A stretch of 64,000 nt of DNA from positions 1 through 64,000 of the IMG/VR virus record IMGVR_UViG_3300042346_000326; one strand, 5' to 3'. This document shows positions 7,517 to 52,709 of the stretch, piece by piece; within the stretch, counting starts at the first letter, position 1; every line of letters starts with the position of its first letter. The notes under the pieces were generated by a model. It was not told the origin of the DNA, made no database searches, and saw only the letters and a list, made by a program, of their open reading frames with translations. The DNA is from a virus. A program made the translations under genes and the position numbers.

Positions 7517-9490
7517 GTGGGAGTTTACGGTAATTTTGTTTACGGTGGCGGCAAGTACGGAGCAACTCCAAAACTTGCTTACTCAGTTGAACCTATGTCT
7601 ATTACGGTTCTTGATTATGACCGAACTTTAGTTGAGTGGCAATCACCTACTGGCGACTTTACTCGTTGGAGATTGGTACGCAGTCAAACAGGCTATCCAG
7701 AAAATGAAGAAGATGGCGTTATTGTTTATGAAGAGTTTGCTACTGAAGGTAATGTAACAAGAGTTTCGTTTGTAGATAGCGATGATGCAGAAGAGCCAAT
7801 AATTGGCATTGACCCAGGTCGTCAAATTTATTATCGGTTCTTTTTATACATCGATACAGAGTATTGGATTGTTGCTGGACAAGTCACCGATACAGTTCCT
7901 TCAGACCATGATGCTCAAAAAAAACTTATGGACATTATTCCAAAAGTTTACACTAGTGAAGTCCAAAGTCCTTTAGGAGTTACTGATACCGAATCAGATT
8001 TATATAAGTTTATGAACGGCGTTTCATTTACGGTAGACCAACTATTAACACAGATTGACGTACTAAAACCCAACCACTCGTCAGAAAATACTCCTGCATC
8101 CCTGTTACCCATTGAACTATTGAACTCAGGATTTACAACAGAAAGTAATATTCCAGTTAAGTATCAGAAAAAACTAGCAAGAGATGCGTTCTTTCTTTAT
8201 TCTAATCGAGGACTACAGTCGGGTCTTGAAGCATATATAGAGGACCTAACAGGGTTTGCCCCAACAATTACAGTATCTCCAAATTTGCTTTTGACAATAC
8301 AAGACTCAACATTTTTAGAAACCATAGGTAACTGGCAAACATCAACCACAACTCTTACATCTGTAACAGAACAAGTTCCAGATATTAATTCATACACAAT
8401 TGATGAGGACTATACAGGCAAGGCTATTGCTGCATCTAGTGCTTCCTTTATAACCCTGGGTGCAAATGACCCAATAGGAAAAGGAATCCCAGTAACTGCA
8501 GAAACAGACTTTACCTTTGGATATAAATACAAGTCACCTTCAAGCGCAGGAAGCGTAAGACTAATAGTTAAATTCTATGACAAAGATGGAACAGACTTAG
8601 CAGCAGACTTTACTGGTACTTTAAATGCCGCCAATAACACGTGGCAAACATCTTGGGAAACAACTGAAACACCAGCCGATGCTGTTTATGCTTCTCTAAA
8701 GATAACTTTTAGTGCAGCAGGAACATACTATCTAGACCAGTTCTATGCCGAAAACGGTGAAAACTTAGATGACACATCATTCCAAGAGGCTCGTGCCGTA
8801 AACATATTCTTACTTCCTAGTAAAACAAACTTTATTCAAAATCCTTCATTTGAAGAGAATTCAAATACTTGGACAATAACGGCTGCGGCTAACGTAATAG
8901 AGGCCGAGACTCCTGACAGTGTGGGTGCAGGTGATGACTCTCTTAAATTAACCTTAACTACAGGAGCAACATTAGAGACAGACACGGGCGCTACTCCATC
9001 AACAGGCTTAGACAAGTATTACACACTTTCGTTTTACGCTAAAGCAAGTTCTGCAGTAGATGTAGACGTTACGCTAACACCAAACGATGATGGAACTCCT
9101 ACAACTGGAGAAGAGACTGAAACATTTACCTTGTCAACTAGTTGGGAACGTTACACAGTAACGGCATTCGTAGATAATGCAGACGTGTCAGGAGAACTAA
9201 CTTACACAGTAACTTTAGATTTTGACACGGCTTCTGGAGTCTACGCATGGGTAGATGCGTTCCAGTTAGAACAAAGTTTTAAAGCAACAGACTATTTTGA
9301 CGGTAGCCTTTCAAGTCAATTTGGAGTTGTGTGGGAAAGCACAGCCCACGAGTCAACCTCTCACGCTTATGTAAATAAGGCCATCAAGTTACCTCGTCTA
9401 TCTCAGACGCTAGATTCTTGGGTTCCTGCAAACTGCTACTGGAGACTGTCCACCTACGACGGAGTTGAGTACACCCGACTATCGGTATAG
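7517..9490 (+). CDS. Tail protein (P2 gpI-like) with carbohydrate-binding-like domains
   Basis: NFIQNPSFEE, YYTLSFYAK, WVDAFQLEQ...DYFDG CBM-like motifs; tail locus. Confidence 0.6.
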   Translation: MGVYGNFVYGGGKYGATPKLAYSVEPMSITVLDYDRTLVEWQSPTGDFTRWRLVRSQTGYPENEEDGVIVYEEFATEGNVTRVSFVDSDDAEEPIIGIDPGRQIYYRFFLYIDTEYWIVAGQVTDTVPSDHDAQKKLMDIIPKVYTSEVQSPLGVTDTESDLYKFMNGVSFTVDQLLTQIDVLKPNHSSENTPASLLPIELLNSGFTTESNIPVKYQKKLARDAFFLYSNRGLQSGLEAYIEDLTGFAPTITVSPNLLLTIQDSTFLETIGNWQTSTTTLTSVTEQVPDINSYTIDEDYTGKAIAASSASFITLGANDPIGKGIPVTAETDFTFGYKYKSPSSAGSVRLIVKFYDKDGTDLAADFTGTLNAANNTWQTSWETTETPADAVYASLKITFSAAGTYYLDQFYAENGENLDDTSFQEARAVNIFLLPSKTNFIQNPSFEENSNTWTITAAANVIEAETPDSVGAGDDSLKLTLTTGATLETDTGATPSTGLDKYYTLSFYAKASSAVDVDVTLTPNDDGTPTTGEETETFTLSTSWERYTVTAFVDNADVSGELTYTVTLDFDTASGVYAWVDAFQLEQSFKATDYFDGSLSSQFGVVWESTAHESTSHAYVNKAIKLPRLSQTLDSWVPANCYWRLSTYDGVEYTRLSV

Positions 9491-36639: not shown

Positions 36640-38652
36640 ATGAATTATTTTTCTTTTAAGTTGGCTGAAGACTTTGTTACTCAATACAAAGGCAAGAAGT
36701 CACCTTTTGGTTATCAAGACGCTGGCGGGAATTCTGTAGGAGAGATTACCTTTCTTCGTACCTATTCTCGTCTAAAGGAAGATGGTCGCAAAGAGACGTG
36801 GGTTGATGTATGTGAGCGGGTTATCAATGGCATGTACTCTCTACAGAAGGACCACGCTAAGAGTCAACGTCTTCCATGGTCTGATGCCAAAGCAGCAGCC
36901 TCCGCTAAGGAAGCATTTGACCGCCTCTTCAATCTAAAGTGGACACCACCTGGACGTGGTCTGTGGGTCATGGGCACGCCTCTTGTGAATGTCCAACGAA
37001 ACTCCGCAGCATTACAAAACTGTGCATTCGTCTCGACTGGTTCCATGACAAAGACAGACCCAGCAAAACCATTTGCTTTCTTAATGGAAGCATCGATGCT
37101 GGGAGTTGGTGTTGGTTTTGATGACAAGGGCGCAGACAAAGACTTCACTATCTATGCACCACAAGGAGAACTCGATTATGAAATCCCTGATACAAGAGAA
37201 GGCTGGGTTGAATCAACTGCATCACTTATTAATGCCTACCTACGACCAGACTCTAAGGCTCCAAAGTTTGATTATTCAAAGGTTCGCCCAGCAGGAGAAC
37301 CAATTAAGATATTTGGTGGAACAGCAGCAGGACCAGACCCGTTAATTAAACTTCACGACTTGATTCGTGGAATGTTCGATAGTCGTGCAGGTCAGAAATT
37401 AACTCGCAGAGACATCGCAGACATCGGCAACATGATTGGTGTCTGTGTTGTATCTGGAAATGTTCGTCGTTCTGCTGAGTTGCTTATGGGCAGACTTGAT
37501 GATGAAGAGTTTCTAAACCTTAAGAACTACGACAAACACCCAGAGCGCCTTGCTCATGGCTGGATGTCAAACAACTCTGTTGAGGTATCTGTTGGTCAAG
37601 ACCTATCGCCAATCATTGATGGTATTGCTCGCAACGGTGAGCCAGGAGTTATCTGGATGGATGTCACTCGCAAGTATGGTCGCCTTGCTGACCCTGAGAA
37701 CAACAAGGATTGGCGTGCTGTTGGCTACAACCCATGCGCTGAACAGTCACTTGAATCCTACGAATGCTGCACACTAGTTGAGACCTACCTCAATCGCCAC
37801 GAGAACCTAGAAGACTTTTTGCGCACCCTAAAGTTTGCATATCTTTATGCAAAGACTGTAACGCTTCTTCCTACTCACTGGGAAGAGACCAACGCCATCA
37901 TGCAGCGCAATCGTCGTATTGGAACTTCTATATCTGGCGTTGCAAACTTTGCAGATAACAGGGGCTTGCCAACTCTTCGTGAGTGGATGGATAAAGGCTA
38001 TTCAGTAATTCAAAGTTATGACAAGAACTACTCTGAGTGGCTAGGTATCCGTGAGTCAATCAAGACTACAACTGTTAAGCCAAGCGGAACAGTCTCTATC
38101 CTTGCTGGTGAATCTCCTGGAGTTCACTGGTCTGTTGGTGGCAAATACTTTATGCGTGCTATTCGTTTTGCAAACAATGACCCAATGCTTCCATTGTTTA
38201 AGATGGCGAATTACAGAGTAGAACCCGCCAATGAATCTCCTGATACGACTTCTGTTGTCTTCTTCCCTGTAAAGTCAGATGCTATACGTTCTGAGAAGGA
38301 TGTAAGTATCTACGAGAAGATGGCACTTGCTGCTACTGCACAAAGATATTGGTCAGATAACTCTGTAAGTGTGACTATCTCATTTGACCCTGAAAAAGAG
38401 TCTTCGGCTATTGGAACTGTGCTTCACATGTATGACGGACAGTTAAAGACAGTCTCATTCTTACCAAGTGGTAACCATATCTATCCTCAAATGCCTTACA
38501 CACAGATAGGTGAAGAGTTCTACAACGATGCAACTATGGAAATCTTCCCGATTGATTTTAGTGGCGTTTATGCTGGAATGGCAGCCGATGCAATTGGTGA
38601 AGCGTATTGCACAACTGATGCGTGTGAGATAAAGTTAATCTCAAACACATAA
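36640..38652 (+). CDS. nrdJ: Class II (B12-dependent) ribonucleotide reductase, RTPR type
   Basis: PPGRGLW, LQNCAF, GNVRRSA, NPCAEQ, TVKPSGTVS, C-terminal CTTDAC; no beta subunit nearby. Confidence 0.92.
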   Translation: MNYFSFKLAEDFVTQYKGKKSPFGYQDAGGNSVGEITFLRTYSRLKEDGRKETWVDVCERVINGMYSLQKDHAKSQRLPWSDAKAAASAKEAFDRLFNLKWTPPGRGLWVMGTPLVNVQRNSAALQNCAFVSTGSMTKTDPAKPFAFLMEASMLGVGVGFDDKGADKDFTIYAPQGELDYEIPDTREGWVESTASLINAYLRPDSKAPKFDYSKVRPAGEPIKIFGGTAAGPDPLIKLHDLIRGMFDSRAGQKLTRRDIADIGNMIGVCVVSGNVRRSAELLMGRLDDEEFLNLKNYDKHPERLAHGWMSNNSVEVSVGQDLSPIIDGIARNGEPGVIWMDVTRKYGRLADPENNKDWRAVGYNPCAEQSLESYECCTLVETYLNRHENLEDFLRTLKFAYLYAKTVTLLPTHWEETNAIMQRNRRIGTSISGVANFADNRGLPTLREWMDKGYSVIQSYDKNYSEWLGIRESIKTTTVKPSGTVSILAGESPGVHWSVGGKYFMRAIRFANNDPMLPLFKMANYRVEPANESPDTTSVVFFPVKSDAIRSEKDVSIYEKMALAATAQRYWSDNSVSVTISFDPEKESSAIGTVLHMYDGQLKTVSFLPSGNHIYPQMPYTQIGEEFYNDATMEIFPIDFSGVYAGMAADAIGEAYCTTDACEIKLISNT

Positions 38653-38654
38653 GG

Positions 38655-38690
38655 AAAAAGCCCCTCGTAATTGAGGGGCTTTCTCTTTTG
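38655..38690. terminator. Bidirectional intrinsic terminator between convergent nrdJ and SLT
   Basis: AAAGCCCCTC-6nt-GAGGGGCTTT with A- and T-rich flanks. Confidence 0.85.
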
Positions 38691-40618: not shown

Positions 40619-40703
40619 CTACTCGTGAGTAACATTACTGATGAGTAAGTTACTGACGAGTAACATCTAGGTCAAATCCGAAGCCCCCTCTACTGATGAG
40701 TAA
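40619..40703 (-). promoter_or_regulatory. Integrase promoter overlapped by four palindromic operators
   Basis: TTGACC-17-TAACTT on minus strand; YTACT-N4-AGTAA at 40619, 40635, 40650, 40690. Confidence 0.7.
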
Positions 40704-40714
40704 CTTATGGGCAT

Positions 40715-40750
40715 AAAAAAGACCCCCATTCCTGATACGGAATGAGGGTC
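40715..40750 (-). terminator. Intrinsic terminator of the minus-strand operon
   Basis: GACCCTCATTCC...GGAATGGGGGTC followed by T6 on minus strand. Confidence 0.85.
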
Positions 40751-40793
40751 GGTCACATAATGACTAAGTGCTTAGACGAGTTGAGTTATTCGC

Positions 40794-43321: not shown

Positions 43322-43708
43322 TTATTAACCTTTCTCAATCTAAAGTTCCACCTTTGTCTAGCCATTCAGCGAAACAAATTGGGCAACCTAAACTGATTGC
43401 TTTTTCTGCTGGATACTCGTGACCTCTAAAACATTTTTTATTAGTCATAACTCTCCTAACTAAGAACTTTCTGAACGCAGTTAAAGCAGAACCATAAAAC
43501 AGATTCGTTATACGAATCCTTTATGTCTTTGCCTGATGTAGTCAATCCTTCCTGATTACAAGAATCGCAAAGCGATAATTGGTCAGGTGTAACTCTGATT
43601 ATTTCTACATAACCCACAGTTATTCCCCCTCTCCTTCAATCATTGAGAATGAAGTTCCAATAGCGACCCCGATAAGAGTCGCTATTGTTACTAATACAAA
43701 GAATGTAA

Positions 43709-43888
43709 TCACTTTGTCACCTCATCTATCATCTTTTGGCATGAGCCATAGCCCAAGAAGTTTGCGTAGGGTTTATCGCCCACATAACAAACATCACGAG
43801 TTATGTATGACATAAAGATAAGTAGAAGAGTGGCAGGAATTATTACAAGAACAATCCAACCTCTTCTAGTTAGTTTTGTTCCACTCAT
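43709..43888 (-). CDS. Small membrane protein (59 aa)
   Basis: MSGTKLTRRGWIVLVIIP... one TM helix; ATGA coupling; not in ORF track. Confidence 0.55.
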   Translation of the reverse strand: MSGTKLTRRGWIVLVIIPATLLLIFMSYITRDVCYVGDKPYANFLGYGSCQKMIDEVTK

Positions 43889-45241: not shown

Positions 45242-47170
45242 TTAGTTGGATACAACTCTTCTGCCAATCGCATTACGAACGATTGTGCGAGCCATACCAA
45301 CAAGGTCGAATGGATTACGAATCACCGCACCAACTTCGCAGAAGTGAGCCTTCTCGTGAGTTAGTTCAACTGATTCGTGTTGGTCAGGAATGTATGCGAA
45401 CGCAGTTAATACGCCAGCATTATTCATCTTCTTGATTTCAGGGTCACACAAGTTTGTGTCACTCCATTCTCCGTCAGTAATTGCGAAGAAAAGTTTGACA
45501 GGCTTTTGTGACTCAGCAAGAAGTTTCGTTGAGTATTTGACCGCATACTCAGCAAGAGTGCCACCTGTTGTTCCACAATCTCTAACAGAATTGTTCGCCC
45601 TATCAGAAGCGCGATACAAAGTTGTTGTATGAGAATTGAAAACAATTACAGAGCAGTTAGCACCGATTCTGTCGAGTGCGAACTTAATCGCATACATGGC
45701 GCGATAAGCGTTGCTCGCTTTATCGCCACTCATAGAACCTGAATTGTCGAGAGCGATTACACATTCAATCTCTGTAACATCTTCTCTGCCCTCACTCCAT
45801 TGGTCGAATACTGTGTCTAAATCATCACCACGCATAAAGCGTGAAGCGTTTAATTTGCCACGAGATTCGTATTTATCCCAAGCAGGGTCGAACTTTGCTT
45901 TCAATCTCTCTAACTCACGAGCGAATGAAAGTGAAGCCGATTGTGTTTTGGAATCAGGAAGAACAGAACGATAGCGAGCGAGTTCAGGCTCTTCTAGTTT
46001 GTTAGTAGATAATGCTGATTGACCATTAACAATACGAATCGTGTTCTCAATCTCCTGACGAACAGAATCCTTATCAAGAATGTCTGTAATAGCAGTATTA
46101 AGAATTGCGATTGTTTTGGTTGTGTCATTACCAGCACTATTACTAGGTGAATCAGATTGCGATTGAGATTGCGATTGAGATTGTGAATCAGATTTAGATT
46201 GCGATTTAGTTTCGTCAATCGTGGTCTTATCTAATTGTTTAGCGCGTTCGCTATCGCGTGTCTGTTGCTTGGCAGGTTGTGGGCGCGAGTTGATAGAAGA
46301 CTCAATGCCTTCTGTTGGTCGCTCACCATGACCCATTGGGCAATTAAGAATGATGTCACCTTTGCCATTTGGATTATTGCTAGGTGTTGATTCACCTAAC
46401 AATTCTTTTTCCCAATCAGCAAGGTCAGAGTAATCACGAACATTCTGTTCGCCACTCTCACCTTGTTCGCCACCATTACCGCCTTCACCATGTCCTGACT
46501 TTGGAAGTAAGTTGTAGAAGCGTTCAATAAGTTTCTTACCGAGTTCTGTATCGCGTGGATAAATAAGTGTTCTGTATTCATCAACGATTTCAGTTATCTC
46601 AGCAACTAATTCCTGATAAGGAAATAGTCGTAGCGATTCTTCACGAATCTCTAGCGGTAAGTATTTGCGCCCACGAAGTAATGGATAAGAACTCTTAAAT
46701 GCGTTCTCATCATTAACAAAGTAAGTCGCAATAGTTACTACGAACCAATCAACAGTTGAAGGGAATCGTGAAGTAAATAAGGTTTCAATACGCTGGTCTT
46801 CTAACGCATTAAACGCCTTGAAGTAATCATTCTCTTTGACCCAAGTAACAATCTCTGAGCCTTGTCGTGGAGTATAAAGAATGTGTGACAACTCGTGGAA
46901 ATTAAGACCACGAAGATTCGCAACACTTACGCCATTGTTAAGGTCGTTGATTAAACGAGAGTTAAGAGTGATGTCACTCGCACCTGACCAAGCAGGTGCT
47001 TCAAGTGAAGCGTGTTCTACTTTGACAGTAATCGGTCTGAAAGTCAGAGCCGAATTAACGCGAGCAAAGTAACGAGTCAATCGCTCAACGCGTTGGCGAT
47101 TGCGCTCATCTTCTTCCTCTTGGATTTTGCGAGCCCGACTAGCGAACTCTTCAATGAATGGAAGTGTCAT
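45242..47170 (-). CDS. vWA-domain protein with N-terminal HExxH (CobT-like partner)
   Basis: FHELSH, NALEDQRIE, MIDAS DNSGSM...GGT...ITDG. Confidence 0.85.
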   Translation of the reverse strand: MTLPFIEEFASRARKIQEEEDERNRQRVERLTRYFARVNSALTFRPITVKVEHASLEAPAWSGASDITLNSRLINDLNNGVSVANLRGLNFHELSHILYTPRQGSEIVTWVKENDYFKAFNALEDQRIETLFTSRFPSTVDWFVVTIATYFVNDENAFKSSYPLLRGRKYLPLEIREESLRLFPYQELVAEITEIVDEYRTLIYPRDTELGKKLIERFYNLLPKSGHGEGGNGGEQGESGEQNVRDYSDLADWEKELLGESTPSNNPNGKGDIILNCPMGHGERPTEGIESSINSRPQPAKQQTRDSERAKQLDKTTIDETKSQSKSDSQSQSQSQSQSDSPSNSAGNDTTKTIAILNTAITDILDKDSVRQEIENTIRIVNGQSALSTNKLEEPELARYRSVLPDSKTQSASLSFARELERLKAKFDPAWDKYESRGKLNASRFMRGDDLDTVFDQWSEGREDVTEIECVIALDNSGSMSGDKASNAYRAMYAIKFALDRIGANCSVIVFNSHTTTLYRASDRANNSVRDCGTTGGTLAEYAVKYSTKLLAESQKPVKLFFAITDGEWSDTNLCDPEIKKMNNAGVLTAFAYIPDQHESVELTHEKAHFCEVGAVIRNPFDLVGMARTIVRNAIGRRVVSN

Positions 47171-47176
47171 GGTTTC

Positions 47177-48538
47177 CTAACCAATTAGTGATTCGTTATT
47201 AACAACATTTGTAATGCCTAAATCTTCTTTTAGATTGTAAGCATTTGCTTCTAACAACATACGAACCGCAGGGCGTTCGTTTTGGTCGAAGTTATTAACA
47301 AAGACTTCGCAAGCGAAATCAAAGTTAAGACCTGTCGCTAACTTCTCAAAGGTTTTGAGAATACGAGTTGAAACAGGTGTATCGAAGATTGTGTTGCTAT
47401 CAGTAATAGCAATTTCGTCAGCACCACGAGAGCGTGACCTCATGCCATAAGCAAGTTCGAGTAATGATTCTGATTTAAGAATCTTCTTCTCAATGCTCTT
47501 GTCGTAGTTGTAGTTCAACTTAATCTCGAAGCGGTCTTTCCATGCTTCGTTAAGTAATGAAGTGCCACGATAATTTGGATTCATGTCAGCGATAATCAAC
47601 AAGTTGTCATTTGCTTTTACAACTTCGTTGCCATTCTCCATGATTGTAATTGAACGCCGATAATCAAGTAGTGGCATTAGGAATTGCTGAACATTCTTAG
47701 CGAGTGTATTTACTTCACCGATAAGAAGAACACCACCATTACGAACCAATCGTGTAACCGCGCCATCAACCCACGATAAAGAACCATTAGCGTTTGGAAC
47801 ATAACCGCCAACAATTTGTGTGTAATCAAGAGCAGAGTTAGAAGGAATCGCAAAGTATTGAACGCCAAGTAATGAAGCAATCCACATTGAAGATGAAGTC
47901 TTACCTGTTCCAGCGTCACCATAAAGAAGAACATTTAGTTTGTTCTTCAATGCGAACTGATACATAGTGAGTTCATCAACATCACCAGCGAATGTGCGTT
48001 GAATGTAGTGCGAGAACTCTTCAATCTTTGGAATGAATAGCGAACGCTCTTCAATCGCAACCGATTGAGCAACCTGTGTAGTAACAGGTTGAATACGGAT
48101 AACTGAATCGTGAGATACAACAGAGCCTTTAGTAGCGCGTTGCCCACGATTGTCGGTGTAGAACTTTCCTAACTCAGAAGGATTGTTCTTTACAGTATCG
48201 AATAGTGAATCAGCGACAACGATTGCTTCATCACCGAGTGTTTGGTCTGAGAGTGAGTGCTTACGAATTAGTTTCTGTATTAGCACTCTTGGAAAACCAT
48301 TGTCATTGAAATCTTCAATGTCATTAGGTGAAACAGGAATTGCGACAGGCTCGCCAATTAGTTGCTCGCCACTATCGAATTGAAACGCGCCCTCTTGCCA
48401 CGCGTTCTGTTTGCCTTGCTTACCATTTGTGAATCTCCAACGAGTAACAACAGAGTCGTTGAAGTTTGCGATAAATACCTGACGAGTAACTGATACATCA
48501 GCAGGTTGTGACACGATAAGTGTTCCGTAGTTTGTCAT
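47177..48538 (-). CDS. MoxR/CbbQ/CobS-type AAA+ ATPase
   Basis: GDAGTGKT, WVDG, LLIGEVN, DMNPNYRG...LNEAWKDRF. Confidence 0.85.
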   Translation of the reverse strand: MTNYGTLIVSQPADVSVTRQVFIANFNDSVVTRWRFTNGKQGKQNAWQEGAFQFDSGEQLIGEPVAIPVSPNDIEDFNDNGFPRVLIQKLIRKHSLSDQTLGDEAIVVADSLFDTVKNNPSELGKFYTDNRGQRATKGSVVSHDSVIRIQPVTTQVAQSVAIEERSLFIPKIEEFSHYIQRTFAGDVDELTMYQFALKNKLNVLLYGDAGTGKTSSSMWIASLLGVQYFAIPSNSALDYTQIVGGYVPNANGSLSWVDGAVTRLVRNGGVLLIGEVNTLAKNVQQFLMPLLDYRRSITIMENGNEVVKANDNLLIIADMNPNYRGTSLLNEAWKDRFEIKLNYNYDKSIEKKILKSESLLELAYGMRSRSRGADEIAITDSNTIFDTPVSTRILKTFEKLATGLNFDFACEVFVNNFDQNERPAVRMLLEANAYNLKEDLGITNVVNNESLIG

Positions 48539-48567
48539 TTCTTTTCTTTCTCTAGGTGATTGGTTTG

Positions 48568-48852
48568 TTAGTTGTATTCGTTGATAGGTGTATCGGGATT
48601 GCTGATTACTGATTGAGATTTATTTTCTACATCAGTAAGTGTTTCAATGAGTGACTCGAATTGTTCTTCATTAACAATTCTTAGTCTGATTACTTCATTC
48701 ATCTTTTCGATAACAGATTCGAGAGTTTCAATAAAGCCGACAGGTGGCTCGCTTCCATTCTCTACTACTTCTTTTGTTGATTGTGCGATTCCCATTAGCC
48801 CCATTTGTAAGAAGCCAAGTTCATCTTTTGTGAAGTCGTATAACGGATTCAT
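48568..48852 (-). CDS. Hypothetical protein
   Basis: ORF with AAAGGA RBS. Confidence 0.55.
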   Translation of the reverse strand: MNPLYDFTKDELGFLQMGLMGIAQSTKEVVENGSEPPVGFIETLESVIEKMNEVIRLRIVNEEQFESLIETLTDVENKSQSVISNPDTPINEYN

Positions 48853-49117
48853 TTGTTTTCCTTTCGTGGTTCTAACTCATTGTGAATCAAGCAGAACCAT
48901 GACTCTTTGTCGTATGCGACAAGTGTGTGTTCAGTATTCATTTAACGAGCCTTTCTTTGTGGTCTTTACGGACATGATTGGTAAGAGTTTCAGAAGCGAA
49001 ACCGCTACGAACCTCTAGTTCTTTGTCGCATACAGGGCATTGAACAATTCTTTGCGCCATGTAAGTAACTCCTTTTCTCTGTAATGGGTATTCGGTATTA
49101 AGTTGTTTATTCAGTTG

Positions 49118-49291
49118 TTATTTAGTTGTATCTCGATAAGGAGTCCATGTAGTCCAGCGAGATTCGCCTTCTACATTTATCCGTAACTTAACTAGGTCGT
49201 TGCGAACAGGAACTATCTCTTCAATGATTCCTGTAATGCGTGACTTAGTAGAAGTGAATAAGTCACCGATTGCGTATTTATCTTTTTCCAT
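49118..49291 (-). CDS. Small SH3-like hypothetical protein (57 aa), first gene after the ncRNA candidate
   Basis: MEKDKYAIGDLFTSTKSRITGIIEEIVP...RWTTW; purine-rich RBS; not in ORF track. Confidence 0.6.
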   Translation of the reverse strand: MEKDKYAIGDLFTSTKSRITGIIEEIVPVRNDLVKLRINVEGESRWTTWTPYRDTTK

Positions 49292-49369
49292 TGTGTTGCC
49301 TCTTTCCTTATGTAACCACCGCGATTGTCACCGAATCTCATTCACAGAATCGGTATCGGTGACAATCAC

Positions 49370-49945
49370 AGAAAACACATAAGCGAAATTACTAAGTATG
49401 AATAACTCGTTTATTCAATTACTGTCATTGTTCTTGGAACAGATTGGTTACTGTCGGCACTAACTATTGTTAGCAATCCATAGGTAATGAATAACTGAGT
49501 TACACAACTTTCCGTAACTCGTCTAAGCCTTCTGCTATTCACAATAACTTTCGTTAATGTTGATTACGATTTATTAGGAGTGCGCTCTGCTCGCTTGTAA
49601 CTTTTGTCGCTCGTAATTCGATACGCGGTAAGTTTGAGTATCGAATTAGTTATCGCGGATACAAGGTCTTCGCATAGAAGTCACTTCGTGCGTTCCGTTA
49701 TTCGTAATTTAATTTAGTCGCGTAATGCGTAAATCATTTTGCCAATTTAATTTTGAGTATCACTCGCGGTCTTATGACCTATTAAGTAAATTGAATAACT
49801 GCCGATAGTAAATTGGGATAATCACAATTACTAAATCGTCATAACAGTTTTTGCGTAATGAATCTAAATCGCAGATTCTTAGTCACTATGTAATTTTCTA
49901 AGTTCGAGTGGGTTCTTTGGAGAGCCTCTCGGCTCTACCTCTGAC
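49370..49945 (-). ncRNA. Candidate large structured non-coding RNA (~530-580 nt)
   Basis: No credible ORF; 5'-3' closing stem, many hairpins, GAGA and GAAA tetraloops, long-range pairings. Confidence 0.6.
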
Positions 49946-49954
49946 CACGCCCCA

Positions 49955-49963
49955 AGTATGCCA
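49955..49963 (-). promoter_or_regulatory. Putative extended -10 promoter of the minus-strand transcript
   Basis: TGG-CATACT on minus strand just upstream of the GAGA hairpin; no clear -35. Confidence 0.45.
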
Positions 49964-50039
49964 TAGATTGACCGACTCAGTTTGCCACCCCTATTAAGAG
50001 CGTGTTTATGGGGCTTTTAGCCCCTAGAGCCCCTGCCCC

Positions 50040-50810
50040 CCAAGTAACCCACCTGCTATCACCACCGCTTCAGAAGAGTTAGTTAGTGAATGAGCGTGAG
50101 CCCCCACATAACTAATCGCGCCAAAGAGTTTTTCTTTTCAGTAATGACTAATACAAAGATAGTAATAGATAGATAGAAGTTAATAATAGAGATAGATAAA
50201 TACCCACATAAGTAACTCGGTAACTACACTCAATTAGTCAATAATCAAATAAACACATAACAAAGTTTGTAATAGCAAATAATTAAGTAACTTCTGACCT
50301 TCTGCTGTCGTATCTAAGCGTAGAAGAGTAAAAAGTAAGTAACTCCGCCGTTTAATTCTGGAAGTTACTTACTGACTAACTCAGATAGCCCGTAACTAAC
50401 TAGCCACCACCACCGCCATAACCGCCACCTGATACATCTTGTCGTTACAAGGAGAAGTGACTCATCTACCTACTAGGGAATAACTGAGTTAGTCATAGTG
50501 ATAGAAGATAATTGAAACAATTAGTAATAGATACATAACAACACATAACTAATAACGCGTTGCGTTACTAATGCGTGATTATGTGATAACAACTGACTAG
50601 GTGACTCGTTGGCTTGGTGGTATCCGCACAGACCATGTTGCTAAATAAACAGTAGCCGAAGTGTTGTCACCAAAGTTGTCACCAAGTTATTTGTTACACC
50701 TGATAACAACGCATGAGTTGAACAACAACCACCTGATTAGTAGTCAGGTGGTAGGTGTTCTCATGTGTAACTAACAACAACCCCCCCACCATTAAACGGA
50801 AAACGCCAAA
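50040..50810. repeat. TAAC-rich non-coding region (possible genome terminus/packaging region)
   Basis: Many TAAC(T/A) words, GTTGTCACCAA twice in tandem near 50663, C7 tract near 50780. Confidence 0.45.
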
Positions 50811-50871
50811 TGAACAGCCAGGTGAGACACATGGTTGAGGGGTTGGGGCCAGGGCAGTAGCCAAAAGACGG

Positions 50872-51141
50872 CTAGTGGCCCTCGTCAATGGTCCACGCCT
50901 TATGGGTAGGAGAGTCCTTTATCATCTTTACGGTCTTATAGCCTGTAAGCCATTTAAGGGCATCCTTTAACGCCTGGTCTGATGTCTTAGATTGCCCTTT
51001 CATATACGTATAAGGCTGCTGTATCTCTGGATTAGTGGGGTATTCATGCCAACAGTCAGTTCTGATTCCCCAATGCCACACAGATTTACGGTTTGTAACG
51101 AGGATTGTAAATTGGCCATTCACACATTTAGTGTAGTACAT
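50872..51141 (-). CDS. Hypothetical protein
   Basis: ORF from MYYTKC; start uncertain. Confidence 0.35.
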   Translation of the reverse strand: MYYTKCVNGQFTILVTNRKSVWHWGIRTDCWHEYPTNPEIQQPYTYMKGQSKTSDQALKDALKWLTGYKTVKMIKDSPTHKAWTIDEGH

Positions 51142-51192
51142 GCTAGTGCGGTTGACGATGTGGGGCCAAGGCAGTAGCCGTAAACTAGCCAC

Positions 51193-51498
51193 ATGGCAGA
51201 CTTTCTTAGCAGAGTGCAGTTCAAAAATCACTCTACTCCCTATGAGGACAAGATTGGGGCCCATTTAGGCAAGCAGCAGGTTGGATGGCTAGACCTTGAT
51301 AAAGATACGGGTGTAGTTAATGAGGTATATGTTAAGGAGCAGCACCAGGGTAAGGGTATCGCCACAGGCATGTGGAAGCACGCCCAGGAGTCTGGCTTAA
51401 ATCCAAGACATTCTGATACTCGTTCCGAGTCTGGAGATGCTTGGGCGCAATCTCTTTATCAAAAGGGACTGGCTCCAGAACCAGAGAGTATGGAATAA
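51193..51498 (+). CDS. GNAT-family acetyltransferase-like
   Basis: VYVKEQHQGKGIATGMW (motif A); HSDTRSESGDAWA. Confidence 0.8.
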   Translation: MADFLSRVQFKNHSTPYEDKIGAHLGKQQVGWLDLDKDTGVVNEVYVKEQHQGKGIATGMWKHAQESGLNPRHSDTRSESGDAWAQSLYQKGLAPEPESME

Positions 51499-51824
51499 TG
51501 AGCAATCTAGGCCCTCAATTCGACCCCTTACAAGAGGCTAGGAGTATCAAGAACAATAAGAGCCGCCTAACTAGGACCCTAAAGGCCGTAGGACTAGAGC
51601 CACGGAGACGATTTAAGTCAAGAAGCGGAAAGGTATCGATGCAATCTGCAGGATTGGTATACACCGCTACAGATAGCAACAGTACAACGGTCCACTACGC
51701 CACTGGTAGTCCTGGAGATAACAACGTGGAACCATATCATCAGCGGATACTAAAGGCCCTTATCGATGCCGACTACAACGCTTCAATGAAGGATGGCAAA
51801 ATTCACGTACAGCACTCTATGTGA
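51498..51824 (+). CDS. Hypothetical protein (MSNLGPQF...)
   Basis: TAATG coupling. Confidence 0.55.
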   Translation: MSNLGPQFDPLQEARSIKNNKSRLTRTLKAVGLEPRRRFKSRSGKVSMQSAGLVYTATDSNSTTVHYATGSPGDNNVEPYHQRILKALIDADYNASMKDGKIHVQHSM

Positions 51825-51836
51825 TAGGCTCTGTCT

Positions 51837-51998
51837 ATGAGCATCGAGAAGCGAATCGGCAAGGTATGGATATATTTTGGTTGGAACTTTAGAAGAGTTG
51901 CATTTGGAATCTCAGTAGACCGCTTTGAGATAGCGTTTGATTTTCTATTCTGGTACTTCACAATTGAATTTTGGCCAATATTTTCCAGTAACGACTAG
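51837..51998 (+). CDS. Small aromatic-rich protein (53 aa)
   Basis: Leaderless-type start after TAGGCT; not in ORF track. Confidence 0.45.
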   Translation: MSIEKRIGKVWIYFGWNFRRVAFGISVDRFEIAFDFLFWYFTIEFWPIFSSND

Positions 51999-52062
51999 TA
52001 CCTCCCCTAGCAGATAAGATTTCACGCTATCTTTTTTAGGCAGTAGCCTCATAATACTCTTT

Positions 52063-52179
52063 ATGAGTAGCCTGTCTGCAAACCAATTCGTAATGCCTAA
52101 AGAGCAGTATGTAAATGTCGCCATGCAGATGATGCCTCCATCAGGGGCCACTAACACAGCAAGTAGCACCAAGGCATGA
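52063..52179 (+). CDS. 38-aa peptide (MSSLSANQF...)
   Basis: CATAAT 7 nt upstream; ATGA-coupled to next gene; carries the shared tag. Confidence 0.45.
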   Translation: MSSLSANQFVMPKEQYVNVAMQMMPPSGATNTASSTKA

Positions 52180-52709
52180 GCAGATACGCAGAGTTCAGTG
52201 ATTCAGCAGGTCGCCACTATGTAGAAGGCGAGATGCCCGAACAAGTCAAATATCGTCACAAGTTATCTAACTTTGGAGAACCTAGGCGCATCTCGGTCTA
52301 TGACCCTAGTGACTCAACGCCACGTCGTGCTAGTGAACAGGGCCATATAGAAGAACATCCAAAAGGTGAACCTGGTCTTGTGGGATATGCAGATATCTAT
52401 CGTGAAAAAGGCGGCGAACAATTCGGCACTCTAACAAATGCAGAGGGAAAGAAAGAGCCACTCATTAGTAAGGCCCATACCAATATCGGCTTTGTAACAG
52501 TAGAACCCAAACATCGTGGTGGCGGCATATCAAAACAACTAATTAACTATGTAGATAAGACCACACCAAAAGATGCCCAAGTAAATTTTGGTGAGATTGC
52601 ACACATCGGCATGGCCAAGATTGCTTCAAAGATGCAGGCAGAAAACCCAAGTCGTATTCATGCAAAAGACTTGTGGTACTACAAAGACAAACTTAAGGAA
52701 GGCCAATGA
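52176..52709 (+). CDS. GNAT-family acetyltransferase-like
   Basis: IGFVTVEPKHRGGGISKQLI. Confidence 0.75.
   Translation: MSRYAEFSDSAGRHYVEGEMPEQVKYRHKLSNFGEPRRISVYDPSDSTPRRASEQGHIEEHPKGEPGLVGYADIYREKGGEQFGTLTNAEGKKEPLISKAHTNIGFVTVEPKHRGGGISKQLINYVDKTTPKDAQVNFGEIAHIGMAKIASKMQAENPSRIHAKDLWYYKDKLKEGQ

Follow-up and report, generated by a model that had tools for sequence, protein, structure and literature searches.

A structured leader RNA heading an early operon of lake phages, with co-varying complementarity to the end of the same operon

What does a 1.58-kb spacer encode that holds no open reading frames (ORFs) and stands ahead of a long run of phage genes? The locus lies on the minus strand of a 64,000-nucleotide (nt) stretch of viral DNA, hereafter the window, which comprises positions 1 to 64,000 of IMG/VR record IMGVR_UViG_3300042346_000326, a 97,380-bp viral genome with direct terminal repeats; the sequencing runs that contain it are lake and freshwater metagenomes. 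An original prediction, made from the letters of the window, had placed a large structured non-coding RNA in this spacer (49292–50871), at the head of a minus-strand operon, and fold, covariation and position support that proposal. In our analysis it becomes a structured 5′ leader of approximately 650 nt, which almost certainly heads an early operon (49292–49963, minus strand). As the original prediction held, the leader has no credible ORF, the only frames within 49292–50660 being a GTG-initiated one of 43 amino acids (aa) and one of 37 aa on the opposite strand. Comparison of related phages further establishes, at the level of sequence, a conserved fold, an RNA family and a co-evolving tripartite complementarity between segments of the leader and a short trailer at the far end of the operon; the evidence for this leader–trailer co-evolution is what appears to be new here.

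A search with the CobS-like protein encoded downstream returned 23 related viral loci, and pattern searches in viral and metagenome collections returned more. The part of the leader kept in these relatives, in the same place and orientation, is a 3′ domain of approximately 270 nt, D3 (49573–49303, minus strand). RNAalifold applied to five sequences gave 86 pairs in D3, 15 of them with compensatory changes, and a covariance model built from those five sequences, R1, scores 298.7 bits in the window at 49303–49573 (minus strand). Every related locus has a full-length R1 match, which scores 105–316 bits (63 bits in one distant group) and lies on the operon strand, upstream of the CobS-like gene, whereas reverse-strand scores reach at most 38 bits. 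This difference (299 versus 38 bits), together with many G–U pairs, agrees with the earlier assignment of the minus strand as the RNA strand. In an alignment of 21 distinct D3 sequences, standard pairs fill 90.7% of the cells, compared with 32–39% when the 3′ partners are slid by one to three columns. Covariation among homologues, which had been proposed as a check, is extensive: 52 of 85 pairs have changed on both sides, and none of 500 shuffles reached any of these observed values. Another proposed check, folding of the 576-nt candidate relative to shuffled sequences, gave a z-score of −3.65 for the minus strand, compared with −2.71 for the plus strand, which would be weak evidence alone.

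Towards its 5′ end, D3 carries a GNRA hairpin already seen in the original prediction, TAAC-GAAA-GTTA (49557–49545), with a covarying stem and a fixed GAAA loop, followed by the segment S2 (49528–49516). The domain further comprises a long interrupted helix (helices 3 and 4) and a core at 49481–49425 that is built from the closing helix AUUG/CAAU, stem P2 (49473–49460), the junction strand GUGCCG and stem P3 (49455–49438), the last with the conserved loop GUAACCAAUC. The 4-bp AUUG/CAAU helix is 100% paired, one of its positions being UA in 8 sequences, AU in 12 and CG in 1, and adding it makes the core a three-way junction; it is the only helix that we kept from an all-against-all covariation scan for extra pairs, which was noisy from phylogenetic structure. 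The junction strands (GG, GUGCMG, ...RMACA and GA) and the P3 loop (GUAAYCAAUC) are invariant, and the GG/GA step is possibly kink-turn-like. On the 3′ side of the core follow S3 (49408–49400), S4 (49387–49371) and a 19-bp terminal hairpin (49371–49319). This hairpin is closed by helix 8 (UUAUGUG/UACAUAA, 6 bp), with its 3′ strand UACAUAA at 49314–49308, directly before the Shine–Dalgarno sequence GGAAAGAGG (49307–49299) that serves the first operon gene (57 aa, ATG at 49291–49289).

Several elements of the fold first proposed give way to this one. Its closing helix (49878–49899 with 49370–49396) is not supported: the covarying helix 3 and the predicted, invariant helix 8 occupy the 3′ arm, and the two arms are the segments complementary to the trailer. 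Two local nested hairpins, GAGTTAC/GTAACTC and TGAATAGC/GTTATTCA, are broken in relatives L006 and L003, and a strand is deleted in distant members; relatives support a long extended helix in their place. Two crossing long-range pairings do exist in the window (11 of 12 and approximately 13 of 15 positions), but their 5′ partners lie in a hairpin with compensatory changes of its own, and this pairing of the middle domain with the junction is not kept across the family.

The modules upstream of D3 are more variable. The middle domain, D2 (49877–49574), measures approximately 304 nt here and approximately 90–290 nt in relatives, and is not conserved even in relatives of approximately 80% identity; blastn of the spacer across relatives likewise gave patchy conservation, with the 3′ 270 nt of the candidate kept and the approximately 300 nt before them not. 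Ten D2 pairs are changed on both sides in the metagenome relatives L101 and L093 (approximately 79% identity), including pairs in its hairpins at approximately 49830–49795 and at 49648–49614. The second of these is the 11-bp hairpin that had been pointed out at the outset (49648–49638/49624–49614), with two compensatory pairs in L101 and L093. Before D2 lies S1, the nearly invariant motif UUACAUAGUGACUAAG (49893–49878), and among relatives the 23-nt motif AUAGUGACUAAGAAnCUGCGAUU is nearly invariant, with one copy per genome. S1 can pair with S2 through CUAAG/CUUAG, a helix that covaries as CUAAG/CUUAG, ACUAG/CUAGU and CUAAAA/UUUUAG.

The 5′ end of the leader is marked by an extended −10 element, TGGCATACT, at the site first proposed (49963–49955, minus strand); it is conserved as TGnYWTAMT at the equivalent place in all relatives, and a transcription start near 49948 is predicted from it. 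In relatives, this element sits approximately 230–250 nt upstream of the S1 motif, and the intervening domain, D1, spans approximately 230 nt and contains both conserved motifs and the covarying helix CGGUGUA...GUGACG; the RNA therefore begins at the promoter and not at the S1 motif. D1 is mostly deleted in the window's phage, where it is short (49947–49894, approximately 55 nt) and holds the hairpin AGAGCC-GAGA-GGCTCT (49936–49921), which is present as originally described. At the other end, no intrinsic terminator-like site is predicted between the RNA and the first gene, and we therefore read it as a leader fused to the operon and not as a discrete non-coding RNA. The RNA ends 9–12 nt from the start codon in the window's group and 37–48 nt from it in other groups, two exceptional loci have no clear ORF after the RNA, and the first gene changes between phage groups while the RNA is retained. 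This variability in first gene and spacing argues against a regulator of one particular gene. A scan for tRNA and tmRNA found none.

The trailer is a 53-nt sequence on the same strand, 8.6 kb downstream of the leader (40805–40753). Reading 5′ S4′-S3′-S2′-S1′ 3′, it matches S4 over 17 nt, S3 over 9 nt, S2 over 13 nt and S1 over 16 nt (two G–U pairs included; S1 complements 40768–40753). It overlaps the stop codon of an Xis-like gene and ends 2 nt before a strong intrinsic terminator with a 12-bp stem and U6 (40750–40715, minus strand), which lies upstream of the integrase gene, int (40607–39330, minus strand). Nowhere else in the 97-kb genome is a same-strand complement to the leader as long as the 17- and 13-nt matches, the background stopping at 12 nt, and these two are adjacent. 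S1, S2 and S4 keep an antiparallel, collinear order with respect to the trailer, in which they are contiguous, while in the leader they are spread over 500 nt.

The same arrangement recurs in nine more phages, giving a comparison of ten that fall into approximately five sequence groups. Each of the nine has contiguous S4′-S2′-S1′ blocks of 9–21 nt that match its own leader, 8.5–10.3 kb downstream. In most of the ten phages the blocks end 0–4 nt before a strong terminator, with the integrase gene next; in L017 and L018 this gap is 12 nt unless a bulged S1′ extension is counted. The segments themselves differ between groups, S2 occurring as GCUUAGACGAGUU, GCUUAGAAGAGAGUU, GGCUAGUGAAGAUUGCG, GGGCUUAGGGAA and UAGGCAACU, and leader and trailer share matched indels of one or several bases, as in CGCUUAUGUG with CACAUAAGCG versus CGC-UAUGUG with CACAUA-GCG. 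As we read the duplexes, their internal non-Watson–Crick positions are five G–U, two A–A, one A–G and no A–C, which favours pairing of two minus-strand RNAs over a constraint on DNA or on the opposite strand. A compact high-GC clade has a 12 + 9-nt complement to the S1 region, between the last early gene and int.

Calculated energies agree with this specificity. The RNAcofold minimum-energy structure pairs exactly S1, S2 and S4 in five of six phages, with a ΔΔG of −24 to −44 kcal/mol relative to the separate folds. A 9 × 9 matrix of ΔΔG values is block-diagonal, with −22 to −44 kcal/mol for cognate or same-group combinations and −0.3 to −20 kcal/mol across groups, and shuffled trailers from three phages give means of −3 to −7 kcal/mol with one extreme of −18 kcal/mol. 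RNAduplex with iterative masking and a block-chaining score discriminated poorly and was replaced by tables of homologous segments and these cofold energies. In the leader, the core domain is bordered by S2 and S4, which take part as strands in helices 3 and 8, and S1 is a partner of S2; by this placement, trailer binding would open the base of the leader and leave the core and hairpins intact.

A shared strand, contiguous genes, the lack of a predicted strong internal terminator, co-variation and favourable computed energy are compatible with pairing of the 5′ and 3′ ends within one mRNA. The best overall explanation, to which we assign a probability of roughly 60%, is a structured early-operon leader with a leader–trailer link. 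RNA–RNA pairing of leader and trailer is, on these comparative grounds, quite probable. Transcription from the extended −10 promoter would carry the leader onto the operon mRNA, and leader and trailer would pair in cis on transcripts begun at that promoter, as the contiguous same-strand genes and the lack of a predicted strong internal terminator suggest. Pairing with the trailer would displace the helices at the leader base, namely S1:S2, helix 3 and helix 8. The leader could thus serve as a mark of early-promoter transcripts, and the trailer could read this mark at the xis–int junction. With the trailer beside a terminator, some link to termination or read-through is plausible. Most likely, the output would be a change in how transcripts terminate or read through at the adjoining terminator, or else the creation of a site for processing in double-stranded RNA; either one would set Xis-to-Int expression or the fate of the operon mRNA. 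That the output is control at the xis–int junction is a tentative proposal, at odds somewhat below even.

Several observations weigh against the preferred explanation. The high-GC clade keeps the match to S1 without an evident terminator, so the termination link is not universal, and the trailer complementarity of L010 is weak. Blocking S1, S2 and S4 in silico produced no consistent change in the accessibility of the ribosome site, and terminator prediction gave no strong site inside the operon that would make antitermination necessary. Because the D3 sequences were aligned to the structure of the model, their paired percentage is inflated; with only approximately five lineages represented, the count of independent compensatory events can be no higher than the low tens; helix 8 and a large part of S1 are invariant and contribute no covariation signal. 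Transcript ends, pairing in the cell and effects on termination, processing or translation are all matters that we infer. Translational control of the first gene finds no support as an output, the modelled change in ribosome-site accessibility being inconsistent.

An unlikely elaboration, drawn by analogy with ribozymes and guide RNAs, would make the leader a tag of transcript origin with a catalytic or protein-recruiting core, whose guide arms S2 and S4 clamp the trailer. RNA from the operon start would then recognize the operon's 3′ end 8–10 kb later, and the result could be direct cleavage, blocking of the abutting terminator or release of an antitermination complex. We know of no described precedent for a start-to-end handshake that sets the balance of Xis and Int. 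Should the pairing be real in cells, we know of no earlier case, among DNA phages or bacterial operons, in which a large structured leader base-pairs through several segments with a polycistronic 3′ end several kilobases away. A long-standing question, how long operons or antiterminated transcription learn where to stop, would become directly testable, and the pairing would bear on the balance of Int and Xis in temperate phages outside the lambda paradigm.

Among the rival explanations, all improbable in our view, the one that survives best is a processive antiterminator of the put or EAR type, in which the folded leader would ride RNA polymerase through the 8–10-kb operon against Rho and weak terminators; the trailer would then pair with the leader base, strip or refold the leader and restore termination before int. 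An RNA that starts at the early promoter of a long operon, whichever gene comes first, fits this explanation, and a large conserved core with invariant unpaired bases would suit protein binding. A long untranslated leader would otherwise invite Rho, and the trailer stands 0–4 nt from the terminator stem in ten phages, if the bulged extension in L017 and L018 is counted. The ending of operons under processive antitermination is a recognised problem (PMC10325885). Against this, the operon has no predicted strong internal terminators for such a complex to overcome, the leader has neither similarity to put nor a boxA, no clear terminator follows the trailer of the high-GC clade, and polymerase binding is itself a supposition.

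Comparison with characterized antiterminators points both ways. The cis-acting processive antitermination RNAs HK022 put and EAR, and lambda nut/boxA, are likewise structured RNAs transcribed at the start of a long operon, immediately downstream of an early phage promoter. HK022 put differs in being approximately 70 nt long with two stem-loops, and the leader has no sequence or model similarity to it; the Rfam scan of 48800–51000 at E ≤ 10 gave no put match, and the one shared feature is the place at the head of a long early operon. The resemblance of the leader's 5′ arm to boxA and processing stems of rRNA leaders, suggested in the original prediction, did not hold up. The pattern TGYTCTTTRAYAA with up to two mismatches has 21 matches in the window, which is the chance level, and none within 49292–49970, so that a boxA/nut-type leader is rejected. 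To our knowledge, a complementary release site at the operon end has no counterpart among known antiterminator RNAs.

A somewhat less probable rival is a trans-acting, stand-alone stable RNA, in which the leader or D3 would be excised, accumulate to high levels as other large ornate RNAs do and bind a host or phage protein, with the trailer as a target or sponge in trans. Size, modularity and the conserved core would suit such an RNA, and the pairing energetics work equally well in trans. Expression is also relevant here: a 258-nt contig in one riverine metatranscriptome is identical to 49611–49868, within the leader, and is the sole contig from an RNA library within 47000–52500, a span of 5.5 kb. 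Metatranscriptome coverage had been proposed as a check, and this contig is a weak hint of leader expression, being single, of low depth and possibly DNA carry-over; the absence of cover elsewhere is uninformative, as the data are assembled contigs of low depth. The contig does not cover D3, however, the 3′ end of the RNA has neither a terminator nor a conserved processing signal, and in the window's group the RNA reaches to 9–12 nt from the start codon.

We consider it very unlikely that the constraint acts on DNA or on the opposite strand, with S1, S2, S4 and their inverted copies being sites of one phage protein or copies of a promoter, and co-variation arising from shared protein recognition or gene conversion instead of RNA pairing. 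Read on the plus strand, the trailer looks like an S1-S2-S3-S4 leader in miniature that carries a CATAAT box, and S1 has the look of a −10 box. A promoter-like plus-strand site (40732–40761) overlaps the trailer, which moreover lies beside repeated GTTACT...AGTAAC elements and int, in a likely attP or regulatory region. DNA sites of this kind do not explain why the antiparallel collinear order, contiguous in one place and dispersed over 500 nt in the other, is kept in ten of ten phages, or why S2 and S4 vary as strands of covarying RNA helices with the trailer tracking them. The internal mismatches that are G–U and never A–C, and the specificity of the terminator for the minus strand, also count against them.

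A riboswitch-like sensor of a ligand or protein, with the junction core as aptamer, helix 8 and the terminal hairpin as expression platform and the trailer match as secondary, has similarly slight odds: the invariance of nucleotides in the junction and loop, the GG/GA step that may resemble a kink-turn and a terminal hairpin that adjoins the ribosome-binding site in the window's group speak for it, but first gene and spacing vary between groups, there is no terminator or attenuator, no riboswitch family matches at E ≤ 10 and the co-evolving trailer is left unexplained. For riboswitch or attenuator leaders in general, the missing terminator before the gene, the variable first gene and spacing and the inconsistent modelled accessibility of the ribosome site led to rejection, and the cobalamin riboswitch (RF00174) gave no match at E ≤ 10 despite the CobS/CobT-like AAA_5 and VWA genes downstream.

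Whatever its mechanism, the leader is a member of a well-supported RNA family that has no entry in Rfam 15. Beyond the window, R1 matches 20 non-redundant viral loci (63–316 bits) and two more viral loci, as well as 14 full-length loci and one 3′-truncated locus from metagenomes. In the window, the D3 match is full-length, lies on the RNA strand and precedes the operon of the CobS-like ATPase; like nine other phages, the window also has an S1 motif, S2 and S4 complementary to a trailer before int. A compact, higher-GC version of the leader, without GNRA hairpin and D2, has an S1-like motif approximately 10 nt before the three-way-junction core, and R1 positions 72–171 alone match it; it occurs at 9480–9840 of L039 (a 100,324-bp contig) and in L034, L037, L087, L089, L092, L104 and L105. 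The family, whose source is lake phages that are abundant and uncultured, thus offers a new large structured RNA with a compact three-way-junction core of 75–100 nt and invariant nucleotides. This core should lend itself well to structural and biochemical studies.

Searches against known RNAs and genomes returned nothing comparable. A cmscan of the whole window against Rfam 15 gave no matches at gathering thresholds, and at E ≤ 10 the region 48800–51000 gave only chance miRNA and snoRNA matches of 15–20 bits. Membership of ROOL or GOLLD, for which the original prediction had suggested this search, is thereby ruled out. The 1.6-kb spacer had no blastn match among 50,697 phage records, so that no cultured phage resembles it at the DNA level. 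A strict core pattern had no match in 185,579 species genomes, which leaves the family with no prophage copy and no host assignment from that source. A WhiB-like gene in the operon indicates an actinobacterial host, and the integrase and Xis-like genes indicate a temperate phage; the family is found in freshwater temperate phages, probably of actinobacteria.

ROOL, GOLLD, OLE and HEARO are, like the leader, several hundred nt long and rich in helices, with peripheral domains that vary; they are also associated with phages and share with it an unknown biochemistry. They differ in being stand-alone RNAs, and none of their Rfam models matches the leader, which is fused to its operon. Pairing of 5′ and 3′ untranslated regions (UTRs) within one transcript occurs in the icaR mRNA of Staphylococcus aureus and in hbs of Bacillus subtilis, and flavivirus genomes are cyclized by the 5′–3′ UAR, DAR and CS elements, segments that co-evolve and remodel local 5′ structures. 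As in these systems, several separate complementary segments would join both ends of one RNA here. The present case differs in that the RNA is an 8–10-kb polycistronic operon of a DNA phage with an ornate leader of 400–750 nt, the 3′ partner sits directly against the intrinsic terminator that precedes the integrase gene, and the pairing is one that we infer. Lambda sib, a local hairpin downstream of int that is cleaved by RNase III, is alike as an RNA duplex near int that forms only on the transcripts of one promoter and decides int expression; here, the duplex would join ends 8.6 kb apart and lie upstream of int.

A catalogue drawn from the same source, IMG/VR, by the same type of evidence holds approximately 8,500 candidate structured RNAs of 29–151 nt, with none above 151 nt, according to the searched text of PMC10690425. 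Pieces of the leader RNA, such as the core or the terminal hairpin, may be among those candidates, and the searched text of PMC10690425 contains no leader–trailer link.

The operon itself begins, on the minus strand after the spacer, with genes for proteins of 57 and 94 aa, the CobS-like AAA_5 ATPase and a CobT-like VWA protein, followed downstream by HNH nucleases, the WhiB-like regulator, the Xis-like helix–turn–helix (HTH) gene and the integrase. Its genes are contiguous and on one strand. The Xis/HTH-like gene (41009–40794, minus strand, 71 aa, ...LTNDQVSELLGLKYSTLYTYRRRNTLPEPD...) was absent from the ORF list; it belongs to the same operon, is conserved in all relatives and has its stop codon inside the trailer. 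Within the operon, 43322–43884 is a stretch of 560 nt without an ORF of at least 80 aa, containing a weak terminator-like hairpin (43519–43501).

Around the operon end, inverted repeats of the form GTTACTC(A/G)NCAGTA(A/G) lie at 40640–40712, between the terminator and the integrase start, and similar elements follow the terminators of L066 and L076–L082. These are probably arm or core sites of attP, or operator sites. AAGTTACT occurs 13 times in the window, compared with 3.6 expected. Farther on, CUUAUGUGUUU at 38643–38653 is identical to the S4 core and follows a bidirectional terminator (38654–38685) that closes the integrase-side genes; at 11 nt, this could be a chance match.

Upstream of the leader, blastn finds the widest conservation within the spacer at 50456–50866 (read on the minus strand), with 70–83% identity even in distant phages. 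It contains the fixed words GGCTACTGCC, CACCTGGC and TTAATGGTGGGGGG, two direct repeats TTGGTGACAAC, the word TTGTTATCA and a terminator-like hairpin CACCTGACTACTAATCAGGTG followed by a T-rich tail. As a second RNA, the block 50866–50584 was rejected, with compensatory changes in 3 of 33 predicted pairs, and protein-binding DNA, such as operators or an origin, is the more likely nature of the conserved block. The word (A/G)GGCAGTAGCC, which is GGCTACTGCC on the minus strand, occurs four times (50852–50862, 51169–51179, 52038–52048 and 50650–50660), two of the copies within a 30-nt repeat of 83% identity (50833–50862 and 51150–51179), and could be a phage-specific promoter or terminator element. 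The leader word TAACTCAGTTATTC (49502–49489) recurs approximately 1 kb upstream in the spacer, at 50478–50491 on the plus strand, as an exact inverted copy of 14 nt, GAATAACTGAGTTA; no other opposite-strand match to the leader in the genome is as long. Finally, a GGT-rich 42-nt piece (50388–50429) matches short contigs with different flanks in two DNA runs, which suggests that a similar word occurs elsewhere in these lake communities.

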